A stretch of DNA of 27,399 nucleotides, taken from Acidimicrobiia bacterium (GTDB lineage Bacteria > Actinomycetota > Acidimicrobiia > IMCC26256 > PALSA-610). The stretch lies in assembly GCA_040513235.1 (NCBI GenBank), contig JBEVDP010000157.1, positions 1-27,399 on the forward strand. Reading direction: 5' to 3'. Every line of letters begins with the position of its first letter. Position 1 is the first letter of the stretch. Both the position numbers and the translations under genes were made by a program. The notes under the pieces are model-generated. The model ran no database searches. It was given only the letters and a program-made list of their open reading frames with translations, and was not told the origin of the DNA. Shown here one piece after another: positions 10,924 through 21,666 of the stretch.

Positions 10924-12399
10924 GTGCGCATGCGCGACCTGCTCGACGGGCTCGACGTCGTTTCGGTGCGCGGAGATGTCGACGTCGATGTGCGGTCCGT
11001 CGTGCACGACAGCCGCGATGTCGCGCCGGGTGCATTGTTCGCGTGCATCCGGGGTGCCGTCACCGATGGCCACACGTACGCGGCTGCCGCGGCCGGCGCG
11101 GGCGCCGTCGGATTGCTCGTAGAGGAGCCGATGGCCGTCGACGTCGCGCAGGCTCGGGTCCCGTGGGTGCGCGGCGCGCTCGGTCCGGTCGCCGCTCGTT
11201 TCCACGATCATCCGTCTGCCGCGCTGCGGGTGCTCGGCGTGACCGGTACCAACGGTAAGACCACCACGACCTATCTCCTCGATGCGATCGCGCGCGCTGC
11301 CGGCGAGGTGACGGGCGTCATCGGGACGGTGGCAACGCGCGTTGGTGGTACTGAACGCCCTCCCGGGCGCACCACGCCGGAGGCCGACGACCTCCAGGCG
11401 TTGCTGGCCGAGATGCGCGCGGCGGCGGTGACAACCGTTGCGCTGGAGGTCTCGTCCCACGCGCTGGATCAGCACCGCGTCGACGGCACGCGTTTCGCCG
11501 CGGTCGGGTTCACGAACCTTTCGCAGGACCACCTCGACTACCACGGCACGATGGACGCGTACTTCGCGGCCAAGGCCCGCTTGTTCACGCCCGCGTTCAC
11601 TCCCGCCGCGGCCATTTCGATCGACGACCCGCGTGGCCGCGCGCTTGTCGCGCCGGCGGCGGAGGCCGGCCTCGACGTCTGGACGGTGTCGGTGCACGAC
11701 GAGACCGCCGCACTGCATGCGACGGCGATCGAACTCGCGCCCGAGCACACTCGTCTCACGGTCGAGTTCCGTCGCGACGACGCCCGCGTCGCGCTCGAAT
11801 CCTCGCTCGTTGGCGCGTTCAACGTGGCGAACGCGCTCACCGCGGCCGCGATCGCTCGCGCCGGCGGGTTCTCGGTCGAGGAGATCGCGGCCGGACTGCA
11901 GGCGCCGCTCGTCGTCCCGGGTCGATTCGAGCGTGTCGACGCCGGCCAAGACTTCACGGTCCTCGTCGACTATGCGCACACCCCGGATGCACTCGAGCGC
12001 GCCCTCGTTGCCGCTCGCGAGCTCGTGTCACGAAACGGGCGGCTCGCAGTCGTATACGGCTGTGGTGGCGACCGCGACCGGGCCAAGCGACCCCTGATGG
12101 GTGCCATCGCGGCCGCGCATGCGGATACGGCCTACCTGACGTCCGACAACCCGCGCTCGGAGGATCCGGCCGCGATCGCAGCCGCGGTGCTGGCGGGCGT
12201 CCCCGCCGACCGCGCGCCTGTCGTCGAACTCGACCGGCGCGCCGCGATCAGGGCGGCCGTCGCGGCCGCTCGCGCCGGTGATGTGATCGTGATCGCGGGC
12301 AAGGGTCATGAGCCCGGCCAGACGGCGGCGGGTGTCACGGTTCCGTTCGACGACCGCACGGTCGCCCGCGAAGCGCTGGAGGGTGAGCGATGCGGCTGA
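10924..12399 (+). CDS. murE: UDP-MurNAc-Ala-Glu--meso-DAP ligase MurE
   Basis: GVTGTNGKTTT, TTPEA, MEVSSH-like LEVSSHALDQ, TNLSQDHLDYH, VDYAHTPDAL, GCGGDRD..KRP, TSDNPRSE (DNPR = meso-DAP-type specificity), AGKGHE. Start GTG 10924 or ATG 10930. Confidence 0.97.
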   Translation: MRMRDLLDGLDVVSVRGDVDVDVRSVVHDSRDVAPGALFACIRGAVTDGHTYAAAAAGAGAVGLLVEEPMAVDVAQARVPWVRGALGPVAARFHDHPSAALRVLGVTGTNGKTTTTYLLDAIARAAGEVTGVIGTVATRVGGTERPPGRTTPEADDLQALLAEMRAAAVTTVALEVSSHALDQHRVDGTRFAAVGFTNLSQDHLDYHGTMDAYFAAKARLFTPAFTPAAAISIDDPRGRALVAPAAEAGLDVWTVSVHDETAALHATAIELAPEHTRLTVEFRRDDARVALESSLVGAFNVANALTAAAIARAGGFSVEEIAAGLQAPLVVPGRFERVDAGQDFTVLVDYAHTPDALERALVAARELVSRNGRLAVVYGCGGDRDRAKRPLMGAIAAAHADTAYLTSDNPRSEDPAAIAAAVLAGVPADRAPVVELDRRAAIRAAVAAARAGDVIVIAGKGHEPGQTAAGVTVPFDDRTVAREALEGERCG

Positions 12400-13757
12400 C
12401 CGCGGCCGAAGTCGCACGGCGCGCGGACGGCGAGGTCGTCGCCGGCGCGCCCGACGCCGTCATCACGTCGTGGACGTTCGACTCGCGCGCCGTCGAACCC
12501 GGAGCGTGTTTCGTCGCGCTCATGGGCGATCGAGACGGTCACGACTTCGTCGCCGACGCCTTCCGTGCCGGCGCGCGCGTCGCGCTGGTCGAGCGGCCGC
12601 TGCGCGATGTCGACGTGGGCGAAGGACACGCGCTCGTGCTCACCACCGACGTCGTGCGCGGACTGCAAGCCGTCGCCCGGTCGGTACGGCACGAACGGCG
12701 CGACGTGCGGGTCGTCGGCGTTGCGGGCTCGACCGGGAAGACTTCGACCAAGGACCTCCTCGCGGCGACGCTTCGACCTCATCGAGTGCATGCGAGCCCG
12801 GAGTCGTACAACAACGAATTCGGGCTCCCGATCACGCTGCTGAACGCGCCGCGCCCGGCCTCTGCGGTCGTGGCCGAGATGGGCGAGCGCTTCCCAGGCG
12901 ACATCGCAGCCTTGTGCGACATCGCGAAGCCCGACTTCGGCATCATCACCAACGTCGGACTCGCCCACGCCGAATACCTCGGCGGTGAGGAAGGCGCGGC
13001 CGCGGTGCTCGCAGAGCTGCTCGAGGCGCTGCCGCGGCGGGGCCTGGCCGTGCTGAACGCCGACGACCGGTGGACGCCGTGGCTTGCAGAGCGCACCGAA
13101 GCCCGCGTCGTAACAGTGGGCTTCTCCGACGCCGCCGATCACCGCATCACCGACGTAGAACTCGACCGGTCGCTGTTCCCGACGTTCTCGATGGGTGTGT
13201 GGCAATTCCAGGTGCCGATCCGAGGTGCCCACCAAGTTGCGAACGCGGCCATGGCGGCGGTGCTCGCCAATCACGCGTTCGGCATGATGTGGGACGACGT
13301 CGCGTTCTGGTTGCGCCACGCCCGCGCGTCTCGGTGGCGCATGGAACTCACGAAGACCGAGTCGGGTATCACAGTCCTCAACGACGCATACAACGCCAAC
13401 CCCGCGTCGATGGAAGCGGCGTTGCGCGCGCTCGCGGAGCTCGACGTCGAAGGGCGCCGCATCGCGGTGCTCGGCGACATGCGCGAGCTCGGAGACCGCG
13501 GACCGGAGGCCCACGCCGCGATCGGCGACCTGGCGCGCGAGCTGCGCATCGACGTCGTCGTCGGTGTCGGGACGGGCGGCGCGGAGATTGGGCGCCGCGC
13601 CGGCTCCGACGCGTTCACCGCGGGCGACGCCGCCGCCGCAATCGCAATGGTCGACGGCCTCGTGCAGCCCGGCGACGCCGTGCTCGTGAAGGCGAGCCGC
13701 GCGCTCGGGCTCCAGGTCGTGGCCGAGCACCTCACCGATGCGAGCGTCGACCGTTGA
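12390..13757 (+). CDS. murF: UDP-MurNAc-tripeptide--D-Ala-D-Ala ligase MurF
   Basis: FDSR, GSTGKTSTKD, YNNEFGLP, EMG, TNVGLAH, NDAYNANPASM, LGDMRELG, VKASR. GGAGGG SD. Confidence 0.97.
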   Translation: MRLTAAEVARRADGEVVAGAPDAVITSWTFDSRAVEPGACFVALMGDRDGHDFVADAFRAGARVALVERPLRDVDVGEGHALVLTTDVVRGLQAVARSVRHERRDVRVVGVAGSTGKTSTKDLLAATLRPHRVHASPESYNNEFGLPITLLNAPRPASAVVAEMGERFPGDIAALCDIAKPDFGIITNVGLAHAEYLGGEEGAAAVLAELLEALPRRGLAVLNADDRWTPWLAERTEARVVTVGFSDAADHRITDVELDRSLFPTFSMGVWQFQVPIRGAHQVANAAMAAVLANHAFGMMWDDVAFWLRHARASRWRMELTKTESGITVLNDAYNANPASMEAALRALAELDVEGRRIAVLGDMRELGDRGPEAHAAIGDLARELRIDVVVGVGTGGAEIGRRAGSDAFTAGDAAAAIAMVDGLVQPGDAVLVKASRALGLQVVAEHLTDASVDR

Positions 13758-14797
13758 TCGCGATGCTCATGGCCGCCGCGGCGGCCTTCGGGGTCGTCGT
13801 GTTCGGTACCCCGTTCCTCATCAACGGGCTGCGGCGCCGCGAGATGGGCCAGCAGATCCGCGACGACGGCCCGATCGAACACCCGCACGTACACAAGGCG
13901 GGCACCCCGACGATGGGCGGTCTCGCGATCATCGCCGCGACCGGTGTCGGGTATCTCTTCGCGCACCTCCGCCGCGGCGAGATCGCGTTCGCGACCGCGG
14001 GCTGGACGTTGTTGGGCTTGATCGTCGGCCTCGGCATCGTCGGCTTCATCGACGACTACCTCGGGATCCGCAAACGCAGAAACCTCGGCCTGCGCAAGCG
14101 CGGCAAGACGATCGGAATCGTCGGGATCGCACTTGTCTTCGGCGTGCTCTCGATCGAGTGGGTGAAGGTTCCGACGACGCTCTCGTTCACGCGGCCGCTC
14201 GACGTCGACCTCGGGTCAGCCGGCTTCATCGTGTGGACGATCCTGATCGTCTATGCGGCCGCAAACGCCGTGAACCTCACCGATGGTGTCGACGGCCTCG
14301 CGGCCGGATCGTCGGCGCTGACCTTCTCGGCATTCGTCGTCATCTGCTTCACCGAGTTCCGCCATCCCGAGATCTACCCGGGGCGCACCGCGGCGCAGTC
14401 GCTCGACCTCGCGATCATCGCGGCCGCGATGTTGGGTGCCTGCGCCGGCTTTCTCTGGTGGAACGCGGCCCCGGCCAAGATCATCATGGGCGACACGGGT
14501 TCGCTCGCGATCGGCGGCGCAATGGCCGGCCTCGCGCTGTTGAGCCGGACGTCGTTGCTGTTGCCGATCCTCGCGGGCCTGCCGTTGATCGAGACGTTGT
14601 CCGTGATCGCGCAAGTGATCTCGTACCGCGGCTTCCGCAGGCGCGTGCTGAGGATGGCGCCCATCCACCATCACTTCGAGGTGGGAGGCTGGTCGGAATT
14701 CACGGTGATCGTGCGGTTCTGGCTGTTCTCCGCGATCTGTGTCGCGGCCGGCATCGCCATTTTCTATGCCGACTTCCTGCGGTTCGGTCTCGAGTGA
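13754..14797 (+). CDS. mraY: Phospho-N-acetylmuramoyl-pentapeptide transferase MraY
   Basis: KAGTPTMGG, GFIDDY, NAVNLTDGVDGLA, MGDTGS, MAPIHHHFE. TTG start overlapping the murF stop (TTGA). Confidence 0.97.
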   Translation: MIAMLMAAAAAFGVVVFGTPFLINGLRRREMGQQIRDDGPIEHPHVHKAGTPTMGGLAIIAATGVGYLFAHLRRGEIAFATAGWTLLGLIVGLGIVGFIDDYLGIRKRRNLGLRKRGKTIGIVGIALVFGVLSIEWVKVPTTLSFTRPLDVDLGSAGFIVWTILIVYAAANAVNLTDGVDGLAAGSSALTFSAFVVICFTEFRHPEIYPGRTAAQSLDLAIIAAAMLGACAGFLWWNAAPAKIIMGDTGSLAIGGAMAGLALLSRTSLLLPILAGLPLIETLSVIAQVISYRGFRRRVLRMAPIHHHFEVGGWSEFTVIVRFWLFSAICVAAGIAIFYADFLRFGLE

Positions 14798-14934
14798 TGC
14801 GCGCGCCGTCGAACACGACCGAACGCCGTGTCCGGCGGGTGGGCCCGGAGCGCGCAACCATGCGCCACTGCGTAGCAATTGTCGGCGAGCATGGTGCCGT
14901 GCGCGCAGCCGGCGAGATGGACCGAACGCGATGA
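14797..14934 (+). other. 45-codon mini-ORF occupying the murD slot (possible murD relic or translational coupler)
   Basis: ATG 14797 overlaps the mraY TGA (in-frame GTG at 14794 too), and its TGA 14932-14934 overlaps the ftsW ATG 14931. Encodes MRAPSNTTERRVRRVGPERATMRHCVAIVGEHGAVRAAGEMDRTR. No Mur-ligase motif. Confidence 0.4.
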
Positions 14935-16199
14935 CCGCGGTTACGCCGCGCATCGGCACACGCTTCAGCGTGCCACGCCTCGGCCGCCAGCTCGCGGAAA
15001 AGACGCGCGCCCGCACTGCGACGACCTTGCCCCGCCCGCCCGCGTACGTCGTGGTGTGCGCGACAGTGACGGTGCTGAACGTCGTCGGTCTCGTCATGAT
15101 CCTGTCGGCGTCCTCGGTCGCGGCGCTGAGCAACTACGGCTCGTCGTGGTACTTCTTCAACCGGCAGCTCGCGTGGGCGCTCGTCGGCGCAGTCGCGTTC
15201 ATCATCGCCGCGCGCGTCGACTACCACGCCTGGCGCAAGCTCGCGCCCTGGCTCCTCGGTATCTCGGTCGCGCTCTTGGTCGCCGTGCTCCTGCCGGGTA
15301 TCGGGATCATGGTCGACGGCTCGCGGCGTTGGCTCGGATACGGCCCGATGCGCATGCAGCCGAGCGAGTTGGCCAAGGTCGCGTTGCTGGTCTTCGGTGC
15401 CGACCTGCTCACTCGGCGCGCCGAACAACTCCACGCCAACTGGCGTGCGTGGCGGCCGGTGTTGCTCGTCTTCGGCGCGTTGTCGTTCCTCGTGATCCTC
15501 GAGCCCGACCTCGATTCGACGATCGTGTTCGCACTGATCGCCGGCTCGCTCCTGCTCGTTGCCGGCGCGCGGGTCAAGCATTTGTCGGTGCTCGGTGGCT
15601 CGATGGTCGCAGTCGCGGCGGTACTCGCCGTTGCCGCGCCCTATCGCCGCGCGCGCGTGTTCGCATTCCTCGACCCGTGGTCCGATACGTCGAACACCGG
15701 TTACCAGATCGCGCAGTCCCTCATCGCGCTCGGTTCCGGCGGCGTCGACGGCGTCGGCCTCGGCGCGGGCCGGGCCAAGTGGTTGTTCCTGCCCAACGCG
15801 CACACCGATTTCATCTTCGCGATCATCGGCGAGGAGCTGGGCCTGATCGGGTGCCTGCTCGTCCTCGGGCTGTTCGCGGGATTCGGGCTCGTCGGGTATC
15901 AGGTCGCCCGCTCGGCGCCCGACCGCTTCGGCATGCTGCTCGCGGCTGGTATCACCACGTGGGTCATCGGGCAGGCCGCGATCAACCTCGGCGGCGTTGT
16001 CGGCCTCCTCCCAGTGTCGGGCATCACCCTGCCGTTCCTCTCCGCGGGGGGATCGTCGCTCGTGTTCACGATGGCCGCCGCCGGGATGCTCGCCAACGTC
16101 GCGCGCCAGGCCGCGGTGCCGCGTCAGGCCCGAACGGCGCGCGCGTCCACACCACGCCCGGTCTCTGAGCGCCCCGTGGGGCGCCGTCCGGACCGGTGA
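14931..16199 (+). CDS. ftsW: SEDS peptidoglycan glycosyltransferase FtsW
   Basis: VMILSAS, RRW...QPSELAK, GYQIAQSLIALGSGG, LPNAHTDFIFAIIGEELG, GITLPFLSAGGSS. Confidence 0.95.
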   Translation: MTAVTPRIGTRFSVPRLGRQLAEKTRARTATTLPRPPAYVVVCATVTVLNVVGLVMILSASSVAALSNYGSSWYFFNRQLAWALVGAVAFIIAARVDYHAWRKLAPWLLGISVALLVAVLLPGIGIMVDGSRRWLGYGPMRMQPSELAKVALLVFGADLLTRRAEQLHANWRAWRPVLLVFGALSFLVILEPDLDSTIVFALIAGSLLLVAGARVKHLSVLGGSMVAVAAVLAVAAPYRRARVFAFLDPWSDTSNTGYQIAQSLIALGSGGVDGVGLGAGRAKWLFLPNAHTDFIFAIIGEELGLIGCLLVLGLFAGFGLVGYQVARSAPDRFGMLLAAGITTWVIGQAAINLGGVVGLLPVSGITLPFLSAGGSSLVFTMAAAGMLANVARQAAVPRQARTARASTPRPVSERPVGRRPDR

Positions 16200-17284
16200 G
16201 CGAAGGGGTGTTCGCGCTGCTGGCCGGAGGCGGCACGGGCGGTCACGTGTATCCCGCCTTGTCGCTGGCCGAGGAGTTGGTCGCGCGTGGGCACGCACGC
16301 CCGTCGATCCGATTCGTCGGCGGCCGGCGCGGACCCGAGGGCCGCGTGGTGCCGGATGCTGGATTCGGCATCGACCTGTTGCCGGGCCGCGGCCTCCAGC
16401 GCCGGCTCACGTTGGAGAACGTCGGTGTCGTGTGGCAGACGTTCACCGCCTTCGTCCGGGCGCTCGGCATCGTGCGCCGCACGCGCCCGCGCGTCGTCGT
16501 CGGCTTCGGTGGCTACGCGTCGCTTCCGTGCATCGTCGCCGCGTGGGTCTGGCGCATTCCCCGAGTCGTCCACGAACAAGACGCAGTCATCGGGCTCGCG
16601 AATCGCATCGGCGTCCGACTGGGTGCGCGGGTCGCGAGCTCGTTGCCGGGGATCGAAGTTCCCGGCGCGGTGCTCACCGGCAACCCGATCCGGTCCGAGT
16701 TCCGTGACCTGGAGCGCACGCCGCAATCCCCGCCGCTGGTCGCGGCGTTCGGGGGTGCGCTCGGCGCCGGAACGGTGAACGCGGCGGTGCTCGACCTGTA
16801 CGACCGCTGGCGCGACCGGACCGATGTTGCCGTTCACCTCGTGAGCGGCCCGCGGAATGCGGAAGCGGCGCGAGCCGCGCTCGCGTCGCAGCAGCGCGCA
16901 GGCGATGCGCTGGCATTCGAGCTCGTCGACTACGAAGAGCACATGCCTGCCCTGATGTCGCGTGCAACCGTTGCGGTGTGTCGAGCCGGGGCGGGAACCG
17001 TGGCCGAACTGAGCGCGGCCGGACTTCCGGCGGTGCTCGTGCCGCTCGCCGGCGCGCCGAGCGATCATCAGGCGCGGAACGCCGCGACGCTGGCTGAAGC
17101 AGGAGCCGCCGTCGTCGTCCCCGACGCCGAGTGCGACGGCGCGCGCCTCGACGCGGTGCTCGCAGGATTGCTCTCCGACCCGGCCCGGCTCGACCGAATG
17201 GCTGCTGCCGCGCGCGGGCTCAGCCGCCCCGATGCCGCGGCCCGTCTCGCGGATCTCGTCGAGGAGCGCGACCGTGACCGGTGA
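16196..17284 (+). CDS. murG: Lipid I N-acetylglucosaminyltransferase MurG
   Basis: AGGGTGGHVYPA, FGGYAS, HEQ, GNPIR, RAGAGTVAE, HQARNA. GTGA overlap with ftsW. Confidence 0.96.
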   Translation: MSEGVFALLAGGGTGGHVYPALSLAEELVARGHARPSIRFVGGRRGPEGRVVPDAGFGIDLLPGRGLQRRLTLENVGVVWQTFTAFVRALGIVRRTRPRVVVGFGGYASLPCIVAAWVWRIPRVVHEQDAVIGLANRIGVRLGARVASSLPGIEVPGAVLTGNPIRSEFRDLERTPQSPPLVAAFGGALGAGTVNAAVLDLYDRWRDRTDVAVHLVSGPRNAEAARAALASQQRAGDALAFELVDYEEHMPALMSRATVAVCRAGAGTVAELSAAGLPAVLVPLAGAPSDHQARNAATLAEAGAAVVVPDAECDGARLDAVLAGLLSDPARLDRMAAAARGLSRPDAAARLADLVEERDRDR

Positions 17285-18686
17285 TCGCGCGCACGACGGA
17301 GTCGTCGAAGTCCCCGAACTCGATCTCTCCGAGCCTCGTGAAGTCCACATCGTCGGAATCGCGGGTGTGGCGATGAGCGCGATCGCGCTGCTCCTCGCGC
17401 ACATGGGCCATCGCGTGAGCGGATCCGACATCAAGGACACGCCGCAACTCGGGCGGCTCGAGGCCGCGGGCGTGCGTGTCGCGATCGGGAACCGGGCCGA
17501 GAACCTGCCCGCGCATCTCGACGCGGTGCTGTTCTCCACTGCCATCCCGGCGACGAACGTCGAGATCACGGCGGCGCGCAAACGAGGGATCCCGGTGCTG
17601 CACCGCTCGATCGCGCAGGCCGCGATCGCGGCGACCCGCCGCACGATCGCGATCGCGGGTTCGCACGGCAAGACCACGACGACTTCGATGCTCGCACTCG
17701 TGCTCCGGGAAGCGGGTTGGAGCCCGAGCTTCCTCATCGGGGGCGAGCTGAACGAGGTCGGCACGAACGCGGCGGTTGGCGAGGGCGAGTGGTTCGTCGT
17801 CGAAGCCGACGAGAGCGACGGGACGTTCCTGCGCATTCCCGCCGAAGCCGCGATCGTGACGAACATCGAGCCCGACCATCTCGATCACTACGGCTCCTTC
17901 GACGCGCTCGTCGCCGCATTCGATCGCTTCGTCGACCGCGTGCGCGGGCCCGTGGTCACGAGCCGCGACGACCCGGTGGCCGCGCGGCTGGCACATGCCC
18001 GCCCCCAGGTGCGGACCTTCGGCGAGCACCCTGAGTCCCACTACCGCATCGTCGACTACCGCGGCGCGCCCGATCACTGTCGGTTCGTGCTCGTCGTCGA
18101 AGGCGCGCGGCTCGGCGAACTGGTCGTCCCGCTCGGGGTCAAGGCCGCGGCCAATGCCGCGGCCGCGGCGGCGATGGCGCACGAACTGGGGATCGAATTC
18201 GACGCGACCGCACGGGCGCTGCGGGGGTTCGGCGGCGTGGCCCGCCGGTTCCAGTATCGCGGCGAGCGTGACGGCGTGCAGTTCTTCGACGACTACGCGC
18301 ATCTTCCCAGTGAAGTCGCAGCCGCCATCGCCACCGCACGCGACGTCGGCGCGAGCCGGGTGGTCGTGGTGTTCCAGCCGCATCGCTACTCCCGCACCGC
18401 GTCGTTGTGGGCCGACTTCAAGGACGCGTTCACCGACGCCGACGCCGTCGTCATCACCGACGTGTTTGCGGCGGGGGAGTCCCCAATCGCGGGCGTGAGC
18501 GGCCGGCTCGTGGCCGAGGTGGTCGCCGAGCACCATCCCGACCTCGATGTGACCTACGTGCCCGGCGCGCGCGATCTCGCCGCGGTTCCCGACCGGCTCG
18601 CTCGGGCCGGCGACGTCGTGTTGACGCTCGGCGCGGGCGACCTGACGACGCTGCCTGACGTGTGGCTGACCCAGGGCGACGCGTGA
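17274..18686 (+). CDS. murC: UDP-MurNAc--L-alanine ligase MurC
   Basis: VSGSD, GSHGKTTT, EADESDG, TNIEPDHLDHY, RRFQ, DDYAHLP, FQPHRYSRT, TLGAGD. GTG 17274 with GAGGAG SD. Confidence 0.96.
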   Translation: MTGDRAHDGVVEVPELDLSEPREVHIVGIAGVAMSAIALLLAHMGHRVSGSDIKDTPQLGRLEAAGVRVAIGNRAENLPAHLDAVLFSTAIPATNVEITAARKRGIPVLHRSIAQAAIAATRRTIAIAGSHGKTTTTSMLALVLREAGWSPSFLIGGELNEVGTNAAVGEGEWFVVEADESDGTFLRIPAEAAIVTNIEPDHLDHYGSFDALVAAFDRFVDRVRGPVVTSRDDPVAARLAHARPQVRTFGEHPESHYRIVDYRGAPDHCRFVLVVEGARLGELVVPLGVKAAANAAAAAAMAHELGIEFDATARALRGFGGVARRFQYRGERDGVQFFDDYAHLPSEVAAAIATARDVGASRVVVVFQPHRYSRTASLWADFKDAFTDADAVVITDVFAAGESPIAGVSGRLVAEVVAEHHPDLDVTYVPGARDLAAVPDRLARAGDVVLTLGAGDLTTLPDVWLTQGDA

Positions 18687-19630
18687 ACGGGTCCCGTACG
18701 CGTGTCAGCGCCGACGTGCTCGACGCGCTCGACGCCGCGCTCCCCGGACAAGTGGAGCGCGACGCCCCGAGCGCGGCCCTCACGACGTATCGCTGTGGCG
18801 GGCCGCTCGCCGCGCTGGTGCGGGCGCGAACCGAGGACGACCTGCGGCGGGTTGTCGGCATCGTCGTCGCCACCGAGATCCCGGTGTTGGTCATCGGGCG
18901 CGGTTCGAACCTGCTCGTCGCCGACTCCGGCTTCGATGGGGTCGCGCTCGTCCTCACCGATGCGTTCGAGCATCTGGACGTCGACCGCCGGGGCGGGCGG
19001 GCGTCGGCGGGCGGCGCGGTCGCGTTGCCGGTGTTGGCTCGGCGCGCCGCGGCGGCCGGTCTCGGCGGCCTCGAGTTCTACGTCGGCATCCCCGGTTCGG
19101 TTGGCGGCGCCGTCACGATGAACGCCGGCGGCCACGGCTCGGAGACCAGGGACGTCATCGTCGGTGCCCGGGTCTGCTCGCTGGCCGACGCCCACGTCCG
19201 GGAACTCTCGCTCGCCGACCTCGACCTCGGCTACCGCCGGTCGGCGATCGGACCCGAAGCGGTCGTGGTGTCGGCGGAGTTCACTGGCCACGCCGACGAT
19301 CCCGCGGCGTGCAGCCTGCGTATCGACGAGATCGTCCGCTGGCGCCGCGAACACCAACCCGGAGGTCAGAACGCAGGGTCGGTGTTCACGAACCCGCCGG
19401 GCGACTCCGCCGGCCGGCTCATCGACGTGTGCGGCCTGAAGCAACTCCGGGTCGGTGGCGTCTCGGTCTCGGCCAAGCACGCGAACTTCTTCGTGGCCGA
19501 GCCCGGTGCCCGCGCCAGCGACGTGTATGAACTGGTGCAGGAGGTGCAGCGGCGCGTCGCCTCGTCCACCGGCGTCGCCCTCGAACCCGAGTTGCACCTC
19601 GTCGGCTTCGACGCAGAAGTCGACCGATGA
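18683..19630 (+). CDS. murB: UDP-N-acetylenolpyruvoylglucosamine reductase MurB
   Basis: TTYRCGG, GRGSNLLV, GIPGSVGGAVTMNAG, GYRRS, NAGSVFTNP, SAKHANF, LEPE. GTGA overlap with murC. Confidence 0.96.
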   Translation: MNGSRTRVSADVLDALDAALPGQVERDAPSAALTTYRCGGPLAALVRARTEDDLRRVVGIVVATEIPVLVIGRGSNLLVADSGFDGVALVLTDAFEHLDVDRRGGRASAGGAVALPVLARRAAAAGLGGLEFYVGIPGSVGGAVTMNAGGHGSETRDVIVGARVCSLADAHVRELSLADLDLGYRRSAIGPEAVVVSAEFTGHADDPAACSLRIDEIVRWRREHQPGGQNAGSVFTNPPGDSAGRLIDVCGLKQLRVGGVSVSAKHANFFVAEPGARASDVYELVQEVQRRVASSTGVALEPELHLVGFDAEVDR

Positions 19631-20370
19631 CGACCGTGATGGACCCGAGGATCGAGGAGCGACGCAACGAGGTGGCGGGCGCGAGCCGGACCCGTCGGCG
19701 CCGGATCGCATTGCTCGTCTGCGGTGCGTTCATCGTCGTCGGCTTGGTGGTCTTGGCGATCGGTTCGTCGTTGCTCGATGTCGACGTCGTGCGCGTGGAC
19801 GGCACCGCGAGCCTCGATCCCGACGCGGTACGGGACGCGGCTGCAGTCGAGGAGGGCGAGCCCCTGTTGCGGGTCGACACCGACGCGGTTCGCCGCCGGG
19901 TGGAGGCATTGCCGTGGGTCGCGAGTGCAGACGTCTCGCGCAGCCTGCCCGGCACCGTGACGATCACCGTGCACGAGCACGAGCCCGTCGCGTTTACGCG
20001 GCGCGCCTCGACAGTGGCGTTGCTCACGGCGAATGGCGTCGTCGTCGCCGACGTCGCGGTCCCGCCGGAGGGCCTCGTGGAGATCGTTGGTGTACGGAAC
20101 GTGCCCGGGATCGGCAAGCTGCTCTCACCGCCCGAAGCACCGGGTGTCGTGCGCGAGTTGCCCGAAGCCCTCGCCGCGCGTGTGACCGCGATCGATCTCG
20201 GCGGTGAGGGCGTCACCCTCGATCTCACAGGCGGGGGATCGGTGCGGCTGTGCACGGTCGACGACATCGAGGCCAAGGCCGCAGCCGCGCTCGCGGTGCT
20301 CGAGCGGCTCGGCGACGACGCGTTCACCTATGTCGATGTCTGCGCGCCCCAGAATCCCGTCGCGCGATGA
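19627..20370 (+). CDS. ftsQ: Cell division protein FtsQ/DivIB
   Basis: DPRIEERR, single TM helix, POTRA domain (VRRRVEALPWVASADVSRSLPGTVTITVHE), YVDV..P C-terminus. ATGA overlap with murB. Confidence 0.92.
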   Translation: MTTVMDPRIEERRNEVAGASRTRRRRIALLVCGAFIVVGLVVLAIGSSLLDVDVVRVDGTASLDPDAVRDAAAVEEGEPLLRVDTDAVRRRVEALPWVASADVSRSLPGTVTITVHEHEPVAFTRRASTVALLTANGVVVADVAVPPEGLVEIVGVRNVPGIGKLLSPPEAPGVVRELPEALAARVTAIDLGGEGVTLDLTGGGSVRLCTVDDIEAKAAAALAVLERLGDDAFTYVDVCAPQNPVAR

Positions 20371-20371
20371 G

Positions 20372-20400
20372 TAGACCGAGCGCGCGCAGTTCGCTACAGT
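20372..20400 (+). promoter_or_regulatory. Candidate internal promoter for ftsZ
   Basis: TAGACC (20372-20377), 17 nt spacer, TACAGT (20395-20400). Confidence 0.5.
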
Positions 20401-20414
20401 CTCGACGCACACCA

Positions 20415-20453
20415 CAGGTTGACATAGTTCTCAACCTGAACTTGAGGTCGAGA
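20415..20453. promoter_or_regulatory. Overlapping inverted repeats upstream of ftsZ (FtsR/Rv1828-like MerR operator candidate)
   Basis: CAGGTTGA-N8-TCAACCTG (20415-20438, perfect) and TCTCAACCT-N7-AGGTCGAGA (20429-20453, 8/9). TTGACA at 20419-20424. Confidence 0.6.
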
Positions 20454-20583
20454 GTCGCGGGAATCCACGATCCGGCCGCCCGAACCAGGCATGCTCACGC
20501 CAGGCAGATTACGCATGAGCTCTTCATTCGATTCCGAACCCAGGCCGGTGAGATCCGGTGACGCCAAGTTAGAAAGGTCGCTC

Positions 20584-21666
20584 ATGCTCGGCGCTCCGCA
20601 GAACTACCTCGCGGTGATCAAGGTCGTCGGCGTCGGCGGCGGCGGATGCAATGCCGTGAACCGCATGATCGACGCGGGACTCAAAGGCGTGGAGTTCATC
20701 TCCATCAACACCGACGCGCAGTCGCTGTTGCTTTCCGACGCGGACGTGAAGCTCGATATCGGCCGGCAACTCACGCGCGGGCTCGGTGCGGGTTCCGATC
20801 CCGACGTCGGCCGGCAAGCCACCGAGGATCACCGCCAGGAAATCGAAGAGGTGCTCAAGGGCGCCGACATGGTCTTCATCACCGCAGGCAAGGGTGGCGG
20901 TACCGGCACCGGTGGCGCGCCGCTCGTCGCCGAGATCGCGCGTGGGCTCGGCGCGCTGACCATCGGCGTGGTGACACGTCCCTTCGGCTTCGAGGGCCGG
21001 CGCCGTTCGGTACAAGCGGAGTCGGGCATTCAGAAGCTCAAGGAAAAGGTCGACACGATCATCATCATCCCGAACGAGCGCCTGCTCCAGGTGAGCGACG
21101 AGCGCACGTCGATGCTGAACGCGTTCAAGATGGCCGACGAAGTGTTGCTCCAAGGCGTCCAGGGCATCACGGACCTCATCACGACCCCCGGCCTCATCAA
21201 CACCGACTTCGCCGACGTGAAGATGATCCTCACGAGCGCGGGTTCCGCGCTCATGGGTGTCGGCTACGCATCCGGCGACGGGCGCTCCGTGGCTGCGGCG
21301 CGCGCCGCGATCTCGAGCCCACTGCTCGAAGCGAGCATCGAGGGTGCCCGCGGCATCCTGATGAACGTGAGCGGTCCGTCGGATCTCGGTCTGTTCGAAC
21401 TCAACGAAGCGGCCGAGATCATCGGCCAGGCCGCACACCCCGACTCGAACATCATCTTCGGTGCAGTCATCGACGACGCGCTCGGCGACGAGGTGCGGAT
21501 CACCGTGATCGCGGCCGGGTTCGAGCGCTTCGAGGGCGAAGGCCGCGGTGCGCGAGCGCTCAACGTCGATCGGACGCTTGGTCTCGACGACGAAGACTCG
21601 CTCGTGGGCGACGACGCGCTCGATCTCGGCGACGACGACTTCGACGTCCCCGAGTTCTTGCGCTGA
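20584..21666 (+). CDS. ftsZ: Cell division protein FtsZ
   Basis: [31 protein letters not shown] tubulin motif, [14 protein letters not shown]-terminal peptide [12 protein letters not shown] 20584 with GAAAGGT SD. Confidence 0.99.

Follow-up and report, generated by a model that had tools for sequence, protein, structure and literature searches.

The window analysed here, a complete contig of 27.4 kb (C157) from a metagenome-assembled genome (MAG) coded G000, carries a division and cell wall (dcw) cluster from which murD, encoding the glutamate-adding ligase of peptidoglycan synthesis, is missing, and it raises the questions of how this step is accomplished and why a short open reading frame (ORF), the mini-ORF, occupies the place of murD between mraY and ftsW. 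Very probably, murD and the glutamate racemase gene murI were deleted after the gain of the MurL/MurD2 route, for which a murL-murD2 cassette is present on another contig of the MAG (C357), and the mini-ORF is the stump of murD. The pathway itself is known; the value of this case lies in a replacement recent enough for its three scars (the insertion of the cassette, the slot vacated by murI and the remnant of murD) all to be readable, with sister genomes that retain the canonical state. The MAG comprises 3.48 Mb in 609 contigs (78% complete, 3.9% contamination, approximately 70% GC), and the window was placed in the class Acidimicrobiia according to the names on homologous proteins and loci. 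The features at the junction are as follows.

13754-14797, plus strand: mraY, 347 amino acids (TIGR00445, 285.7 bits against a cut-off of 192).
14794-14934, plus strand: the mini-ORF, a putative murD remnant of 46 codons from GTG 14794 or 45 codons from ATG 14797.
14931-16199, plus strand: ftsW, 422 amino acids (TIGR02614, 394 bits).

The stop codon of mraY (TGA, 14795-14797) overlaps the start of the mini-ORF; the 133 bases between mraY and ftsW lie in one frame that ends with TGA at 14932-14934; and this stop overlaps the ftsW start (ATGA), which at 14931 is also the start in the public gene call of 422 amino acids and aligns from residue 1 with relatives. Both overlaps (TGATG and ATGA) are set by the mraY stop and by the start and second codon of ftsW. 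No Mur ligase is encoded between mraY and ftsW, the slot being only 133 bases long, and a search of the whole G000 bin (78% complete) found no canonical MurD above the TIGR01087 cut-off. The coordinates given in the original prediction were exact, and its observations that the dcw cluster lacks murD and that the mini-ORF overlaps both the mraY stop and the ftsW start, as at the other junctions of the operon, were confirmed. The translation of the mini-ORF had no protein family match in a profile search, and independent assemblies have it called as a gene of 45 amino acids, as gene callers often do. Its frame is open for 1197 bases (398 codons, 13738-14934), across all of mraY; this opening is a shadow frame of mraY in DNA of 70% GC, and its openness is not beyond chance. 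The shadow frame could mislead gene callers: in one long-read assembly (L171), a product of 390 amino acids that joins MraY to the stump is called.

Close relatives of the locus were retrieved via 90% protein clusters of the FtsW and MraY of G000; the matches of FtsW in a metagenome scan reached at most 68% identity, none being a close relative. The arrangement of mraY, a 133-base gap and ftsW recurs in eight contigs that come from different samples and were assembled independently (three long ones of 475-577 kb and five short ones), and the junction stretch occurs in about 12 soil metagenome studies. Contigs of two other DNA studies cross the junction without an indel or a joint, and in two metatranscriptome libraries from the rhizosphere, contigs cover mraY, the gap and ftsW piece by piece (e.g., 14703-14916 and 14840-14941). 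The collapse of a full murD during assembly, which the original prediction had proposed to check, is excluded by the eight assemblies and the contigs of the other studies.

In two genomes of the same genus (G001 and G002), murD (391 bits, TIGR01087) is located directly after mraY, and murI is also present. The MraY protein of the window is 79-81% identical to those of G001, G002, G021 and G011, compared with 57-65% for other MurL lineages; the contig therefore belongs to the family of G000 and is no stray from a distant lineage. Comparison with the canonical clusters of these relatives located two relics of murD within the mini-ORF.

14794-14808, plus strand: murD-start relic, 15 bases GAGTGATGCGCGCGC (counted from 14792), equal to the mraY-stop/murD-start junction of G021.
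14845-14904, plus strand: core murD relic, PERATMRHCVAIVGEHGAVR, in the ancestral murD frame, corresponding to MurD residues 302-322 (approximately) of 447 (Escherichia coli LPHRFEVVLEHNGVR).

In G021, GAGTGATGCGCGCGC opens MurD as (V)MRALVIG, and the murD gene there terminates in the same ATGA overlap that is found at the ftsW start of the window. The core relic aligns in frame with a conserved MurD segment, ...TMPHRVALVGEHGGV ("HR..VGEHGGV"), which is located at the start of the C-terminal domain of MurD (around residue 305 of 447) and is followed closely by the DSKATN motif. It is identical at 40 of 46 bases to the murD gene of L175, the closest one available, and its local DNA alignments to the murD genes of L175 and G011 score 52-56, compared with a maximum of 34-39 for shuffled sequences; for the whole mini-ORF against L175 murD, the score is 35.5 and the shuffle maximum 22. 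Judged from this start string and core homology, the mini-ORF is a collapsed, in-frame stump of murD. This agrees with the earlier proposal of a collapsed murD, including its reading of the initial MRA as the murD start, which equals that of G021; the EHGAVRA string, formerly taken for the C-terminal end of MurD, instead belongs to the middle of the protein (approximately residue 305 of 447). An alignment of the entire stump to murD under a low penalty for long gaps broke up into many tiny blocks, a sign of overfitting, and was dropped. The murD gene of G011 (L057:1095-2470) is frameshifted after about 110 codons, probably by long-read indel errors, and was left out as a protein reference.

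The locus L175 encodes an FtsW 92% identical to that of G000, still preceded by murD. The identity between G000 and L175 rises from about 50% to about 96% near 15060-15090 and stays high through murG, the first 130 or so bases of ftsW and the sequence upstream being only 50-80% identical, with indels (window 14931-15090 against L175:575-740). Either alleles with and without murD recombined here, or the metagenome contig L175 is chimeric. Owing to this jump in identity, it was not used to date the loss of murD, for which it might otherwise have served as proof of a very recent event.

A profile search of the bin located a candidate replacement for the missing ligase and racemase on contig C357.

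C357, 3845-5164: murL, 439 amino acids (NF041275, 291.9 bits, E = 6.3e-87).
C357, 5161-6411: murD2, the only MurD-like gene of the bin (TIGR01087, 183.9 bits).

The two genes are joined by an ATGA overlap. Residues 12-432 of the MurL protein match positions 9-445 of the 447 in the NF041275 profile, and a 94% identical homologue has the Pfam domains MurL_N and MurL_epimerase_C and was named as such an epimerase by JGI; a local Pfam scan missed MurL, the MurL families being present in newer Pfam. MurL contains an invariant GGGKDS motif resembling a PP-loop, consistent with adenylation chemistry. The cassette is located between a class I fumarase gene and a pair of genes encoding a histidine phosphatase and MGMT. 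The fumarase of C357 is 86-87% identical to those of G001, G002, G021 and G011, in which the fumarase gene directly adjoins the MGMT gene, and murL-murD2 is thus an insertion of approximately 2.6 kb. The order of fumarase, murL, ..., His_Phos and MGMT recurs on a 260-kb contig from another sample. C357 is native to the lineage of G000. The GC content and the GC content at third codon positions (GC3) of the cassette match those of its flanks. It would be very improbable for the murD loss to be an assembly collapse or for the cassette contig to have been mis-binned from another organism: the MAG is fragmented (609 contigs, 3.9% contamination) and both same-genus genomes lack MurL, but the junction is identical in eight assemblies, including the contigs of 475-577 kb, and free of indels in the contigs of other studies; the genes that flank the cassette have the phylogenetic signal and synteny of the family of G000; the same insertion occurs on the 260-kb contig; and the sole MurD-like gene of the bin is of the MurL-linked type.

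The racemase gene is missing as well. No match to TIGR00067 or PF01177 (Asp/Glu racemase) was found in the G000 bin (78% complete). In G001 and G002, murI is located among genes for Sua5, an MBL-fold hydrolase and RNase PH, and this neighbourhood is present on contig C79 of G000, with aligned blocks on both sides of the slot and 167 bases between them, versus 884 with murI in G001 and G002.

G000:C79:8008-8174 (L261:2509-2675): emptied murI slot, 167 bases between the Sua5/TsaC gene and the MBL-fold hydrolase gene.

An intact and empty slot argues more decisively for the apparent loss of murI than the lack of a profile match. The MurL/MurD2 branch of the original prediction and its corollary, the absence of murI, were thus borne out, the former by the murL-murD2 pair on C357 and the latter by the racemase search together with the empty syntenic slot.

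In Xanthomonas oryzae, MurD2 (XOO_1320) adds L-glutamate (L-Glu) and MurL (XOO_1319) epimerises it with ATP (PMC8788868). Whether the ligase of C357 is a MurD2 was evaluated in an alignment of 72 MurL-linked ligases and 16 canonical MurD proteins, numbered on E. coli MurD, with signature positions taken from this numbering and from published substitutions; the residues of X. oryzae MurD2 given with their E. coli counterparts are R358 (K348), E197 (D182), P433 (A414) and F435 (L416) (PMC8788868). The residues found are as follows.

K348 of E. coli MurD: K in 16 of 16 canonical proteins, R in 70 of 72 MurL-linked ligases, R in G000.
K319 (DSKATN motif): K in 16 of 16 canonical proteins, L or I in 65 of 72 MurL-linked ligases, L in G000.
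A414: A in 16 of 16 canonical proteins, P in 64 of 72 MurL-linked ligases, P in G000.
D182: D in 16 of 16 canonical proteins, E in 53 and D in 18 of 72 MurL-linked ligases, D in G000.

At the L416 position, G000 has P, and the linked ligases have mostly Y, P or F. A single branch of the tree (support 100/99) divides the 72 MurL-linked ligases from the 16 canonical ones. The TIGR01087 score of the G000 ligase (183.9 bits) is less than the cut-off of 211.95, and a MurD-like gene is adjacent or fused to murL in 78 of the 79 loci with enough flanking sequence. Mutation of E197 to D in MurD2 was reported to alter its stereospecificity, the P433A and F435L mutants were unchanged in specificity, and E. 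coli MurD K319T was reported to admit L-Glu (PMC8788868). These data place the C357 ligase in the MurL-linked MurD2 group; it is predicted to be specific for L-Glu, although one published determinant, Glu at D182, is absent.

A relocated ligase that still adds D-Glu, obtained from an unrecognised source, with the MurL homologue in some other role, is quite unlikely. Asp at D182 is shared by all 18 members of the Acidimicrobiia-type clade to which the G000 ligase belongs, in the tree no other MurL-linked group is closer to canonical MurD than this clade, and class IV aminotransferase homologues are present in the bin; however, the aminotransferases score only 120 bits, far under the D-amino-acid aminotransferase cut-off of 277, no racemase was found in the bin and the murI slot is deleted, the ligase has R, L and P at K348, K319 and A414, and the adjacency of MurD-like genes to murL is nearly universal, to the point of fusion in some lineages. 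The published model of stereospecificity can be tested directly on the large MurL-linked clade with Asp at D182.

Among the 41 genomes of the order of G000 that were surveyed, MurL was found in only four (G000, G003, G030 and G033), all of which lack a canonical MurD, a murD gene between mraY and ftsW, and MurI. MurI is present in 32 of the other 37 genomes, and the canonical MurD matches are located directly after mraY. Counted by genus, MurL occurs in g26, which includes G030 (four of six genomes in family f7), and in g29, which includes G033 (seven of seven), and the MurL genomes examined all lack murD between mraY and ftsW. Identity between the MurL protein of G000 and its counterparts in g26 and g29 is low (37-47%), and the ligase fragment of G003 is of the other subtype (E, I, R). 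This distribution points to at least four independent replacements within the order. That the swap took place repeatedly in one order, and with different MurD2 subtypes, implies that horizontal transfer replaces essential peptidoglycan steps more readily than would be expected from the published list of hosts. MurL is widespread: at least 582 loci were counted in species representatives, Geodermatophilus, Aquihabitans and Solirubrobacterales among them, and the 80 best of these loci are from other Actinomycetota.

Gene presence and absence, synteny, relic homology and MurD2-type residues were observed; what the enzymes do, in which sequence the changes took place and whether the stump influences the translation of ftsW are deductions. 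An ancestor of this lineage of soil Acidimicrobiia would have acquired the murL-murD2 cassette now on C357. With the cassette in place, neither MurD nor the glutamate racemase MurI would have been needed any longer, and their genes would then have been deleted. The removal of murI would have emptied the slot between the Sua5 gene and the genes for the MBL-fold hydrolase and RNase PH on C79, and deletions would have shrunk murD to 138 bases, in which the start, the stop and about 20 codons of the middle survive. As the start and stop overlap mraY and ftsW and the number of bases lost is a multiple of three, the ancestral reading frame of the stump is still open. Co-transcribed with the operon, it is probably still translated and would passively continue the chain of stop/start overlaps.

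Several observations weigh against this history. The MurL score of 291.9 bits is well below the NF041275 equivalog cut-off of 700, a profile that was built from Xanthomonadales only and for which every actinobacterial match in the order is also below the cut-off. The G000 ligase has Asp at D182, in contrast to Glu197 of X. oryzae MurD2, and at L416 it has Pro, not Phe as at F435. Beyond the 15-base start and the core of about 50 bases, the stump has no significant similarity to murD; when its 5' and 3' flanks were aligned to four full-length murD genes, neither scored higher than shuffled sequences. The contigs from the RNA libraries may include DNA carry-over. The cassette, the junction and the murI slot are linked by binning and phylogenetic signal, not by one molecule.

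The system most similar to the proposed one is that of X. oryzae, which has the same tightly coupled order of murL then murD2, a full-length MurL homologue, Arg at K348 and Pro at A414, no glutamate racemase in the genome and no murD in the dcw cluster. G000 differs in the two ligase residues just mentioned, in a MurL that is distant by profile score (292 versus 700 bits), and in its host, an uncultured member of the Acidimicrobiia with same-genus genomes that keep MurD and MurI. Orthologues of MurD2 and MurL were assayed in Micromonospora and Salinispora (Feng et al. 2017, reviewed in PMC8788868). The Acidimicrobiia are not among the hosts of the route in the reviews found by a literature search. 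The MurD2/MurL route is proven in few genera and has been proposed as a narrow-spectrum antibiotic target.

The canonical clusters of G001, G002, G021 and G011 have the same gene order as the window, with 73-81% identical MraY and FtsW, and the same mraY-stop/murD-start string (in G021 also the ATGA of murD stop and ftsW start); they differ in having a MurD of about 447 amino acids (approximately 390 bits, TIGR01087) in the slot, and murI elsewhere. The murD-less clusters L112, L116 and L131 resemble the window in having mraY followed by ftsW without murD, still translationally linked, but their mraY stop overlaps the ftsW ATG directly, whereas G000 retains a stump of 138 bases.

Overlapping stop and start codons (ATGA or TGATG) are a classic arrangement of translational coupling in bacterial operons. 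Both ends of the mini-ORF have such a 4- or 5-base overlap, like the other junctions of the operon, with the difference that the overlaps of the mini-ORF were inherited from murD. By default, the stump is read as a young, still-translatable relic. It is possible, though doubtful, that selection keeps it as a translated spacer acting as a ribosome relay, in which ribosomes that end mraY restart and reach ftsW via the ATGA; in that case translatability and frame would matter and the peptide would not. Successive genes of the operon overlap by 4 to 10 bases, and both the start/stop overlaps and the ancestral frame of the stump outlived the deletions, the rough neutral expectation that overall frame and core would both remain in phase being about 1/9; the overlaps are nevertheless held by the mraY stop and by the start and second codon of ftsW, and need no selection of their own. 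The ftsW gene lacks a strong Shine-Dalgarno sequence (-5.8 kcal/mol, compared with a background median of -3.3 and a 10th percentile of -7.3), which counts in favour of a relay.

Population variation bears on the same possibility. No frame-breaking variant was found in about 10 haplotypes; however, with only 2% of possible substitutions giving a stop and differences of just 4-5% among haplotypes, chance alone would be expected to leave the frame intact. The variants in the stump (about 18 sites) are spread as 4/6/8 over codon positions 1/2/3, versus 6/5/26 in ftsW; the peptide is therefore unconstrained, and this peptide-neutral pattern fits what a relay would predict. Against a relay, one variant (14798 T>C, on one contig of run X5) changes the ATG of the stump to ACG, leaving GTG 14794 as the only possible start. 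The mini-ORF is intact and of the same length in six close relatives, which are near-identical and hence uninformative with respect to conservation of the frame.

More distant murD-less lineages give a mixed picture. G003 and G030, which are independent, have doubly overlapping ORFs of 27 and 38 codons, respectively, in the slot, and the direct TGATG overlap of mraY and ftsW in the three lineages of L112, L116 and L131 suggests that coupling is favoured; yet within g26 the double overlap occurs only in G030 and not in G172, G173, G174, G175 or L110, and the gap of family f10 is AT-rich, with no ORF in the genomes examined. The conservation expected of the relay in the original prediction was thus not found, neither the frame nor the overlaps being conserved across independent murD-less lineages. 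If the relay were nonetheless true, in-frame collapse would let operons lose genes without breaking downstream expression, and it may tentatively be suggested that such collapse is a general way for coupled operons to lose an internal essential gene, with the TGATG overlap as its end state. The stump is a natural system in which to ask whether translational coupling constrains the loss of genes from operons.

A role of the gap as a promoter or other regulatory element for ftsW-murG, rather than as an ORF, is improbable. The mraY-ftsW gap of g26 keeps a promoter-like motif (TTCCACC..N..CAGGCTGG) and preservation of the G000 relic is better in its core than in its flanks, but the g26 motif is not present in the G000 gap, no sigma-70-like promoter or terminator was found in 14500-15200, and the contigs from the RNA libraries continue from mraY into the gap. 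In the g26 gaps themselves (L059, L083, L084, L086, L087 and L110; 130-215 bases), a non-coding promoter-like motif, GGGTTCCACCA..N..GGTCAGGCTGGTG, is conserved, and the ORF structure around it is not.

The remainder of the dcw cluster in the window is complete. On the plus strand, the order is ftsI, murE, murF, mraY, ftsW, murG, murC, murB, ftsQ and ftsZ, and the domains of all ten, ftsI included, are complete.

10924-12399, plus strand: murE, with Mur ligase domains.
12390-13757, plus strand: murF, with Mur ligase domains.
16196-21666, plus strand: murG, murC, murB, ftsQ and ftsZ, all intact, with Pfam domains.

The scan of the window found full Pfam domains for murC, murE, murF, murB, murG and mraY, as the original prediction had stated of their intactness, and also for ftsW, ftsQ and ftsZ. 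According to their coordinates, murE and murF overlap by 10 bases and murF and mraY by 4 bases, and the ftsW stop overlaps the murG start, in keeping with an operon that is a run of 4- to 10-base gene overlaps. The gene between murC and ftsQ, both here and in close relatives of the cluster, is murB (18662-19630) and not ddl.

MurL and MurD2 are fused in family f10 (genus g29, with low-GC genomes of 1.5-1.8 Mb), as a single frame of 861-913 amino acids.

L064:1954-4536 (G033), minus strand: MurL-MurD2 fusion, found also in L065-L070.

Three loci of Blastococcus and Trujillonella (L194, L195 and L211) have frames of about 880 amino acids that extend over both the ligase and MurL, the fusion being indicated by frame length only. 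Two loci labelled as Bifidobacterium breve MAGs (L237 and L242) have murL-murD2 genes near-identical to those of Actinobacteria bacterium IMCC26207, and are probably mislabelled or contaminant contigs.

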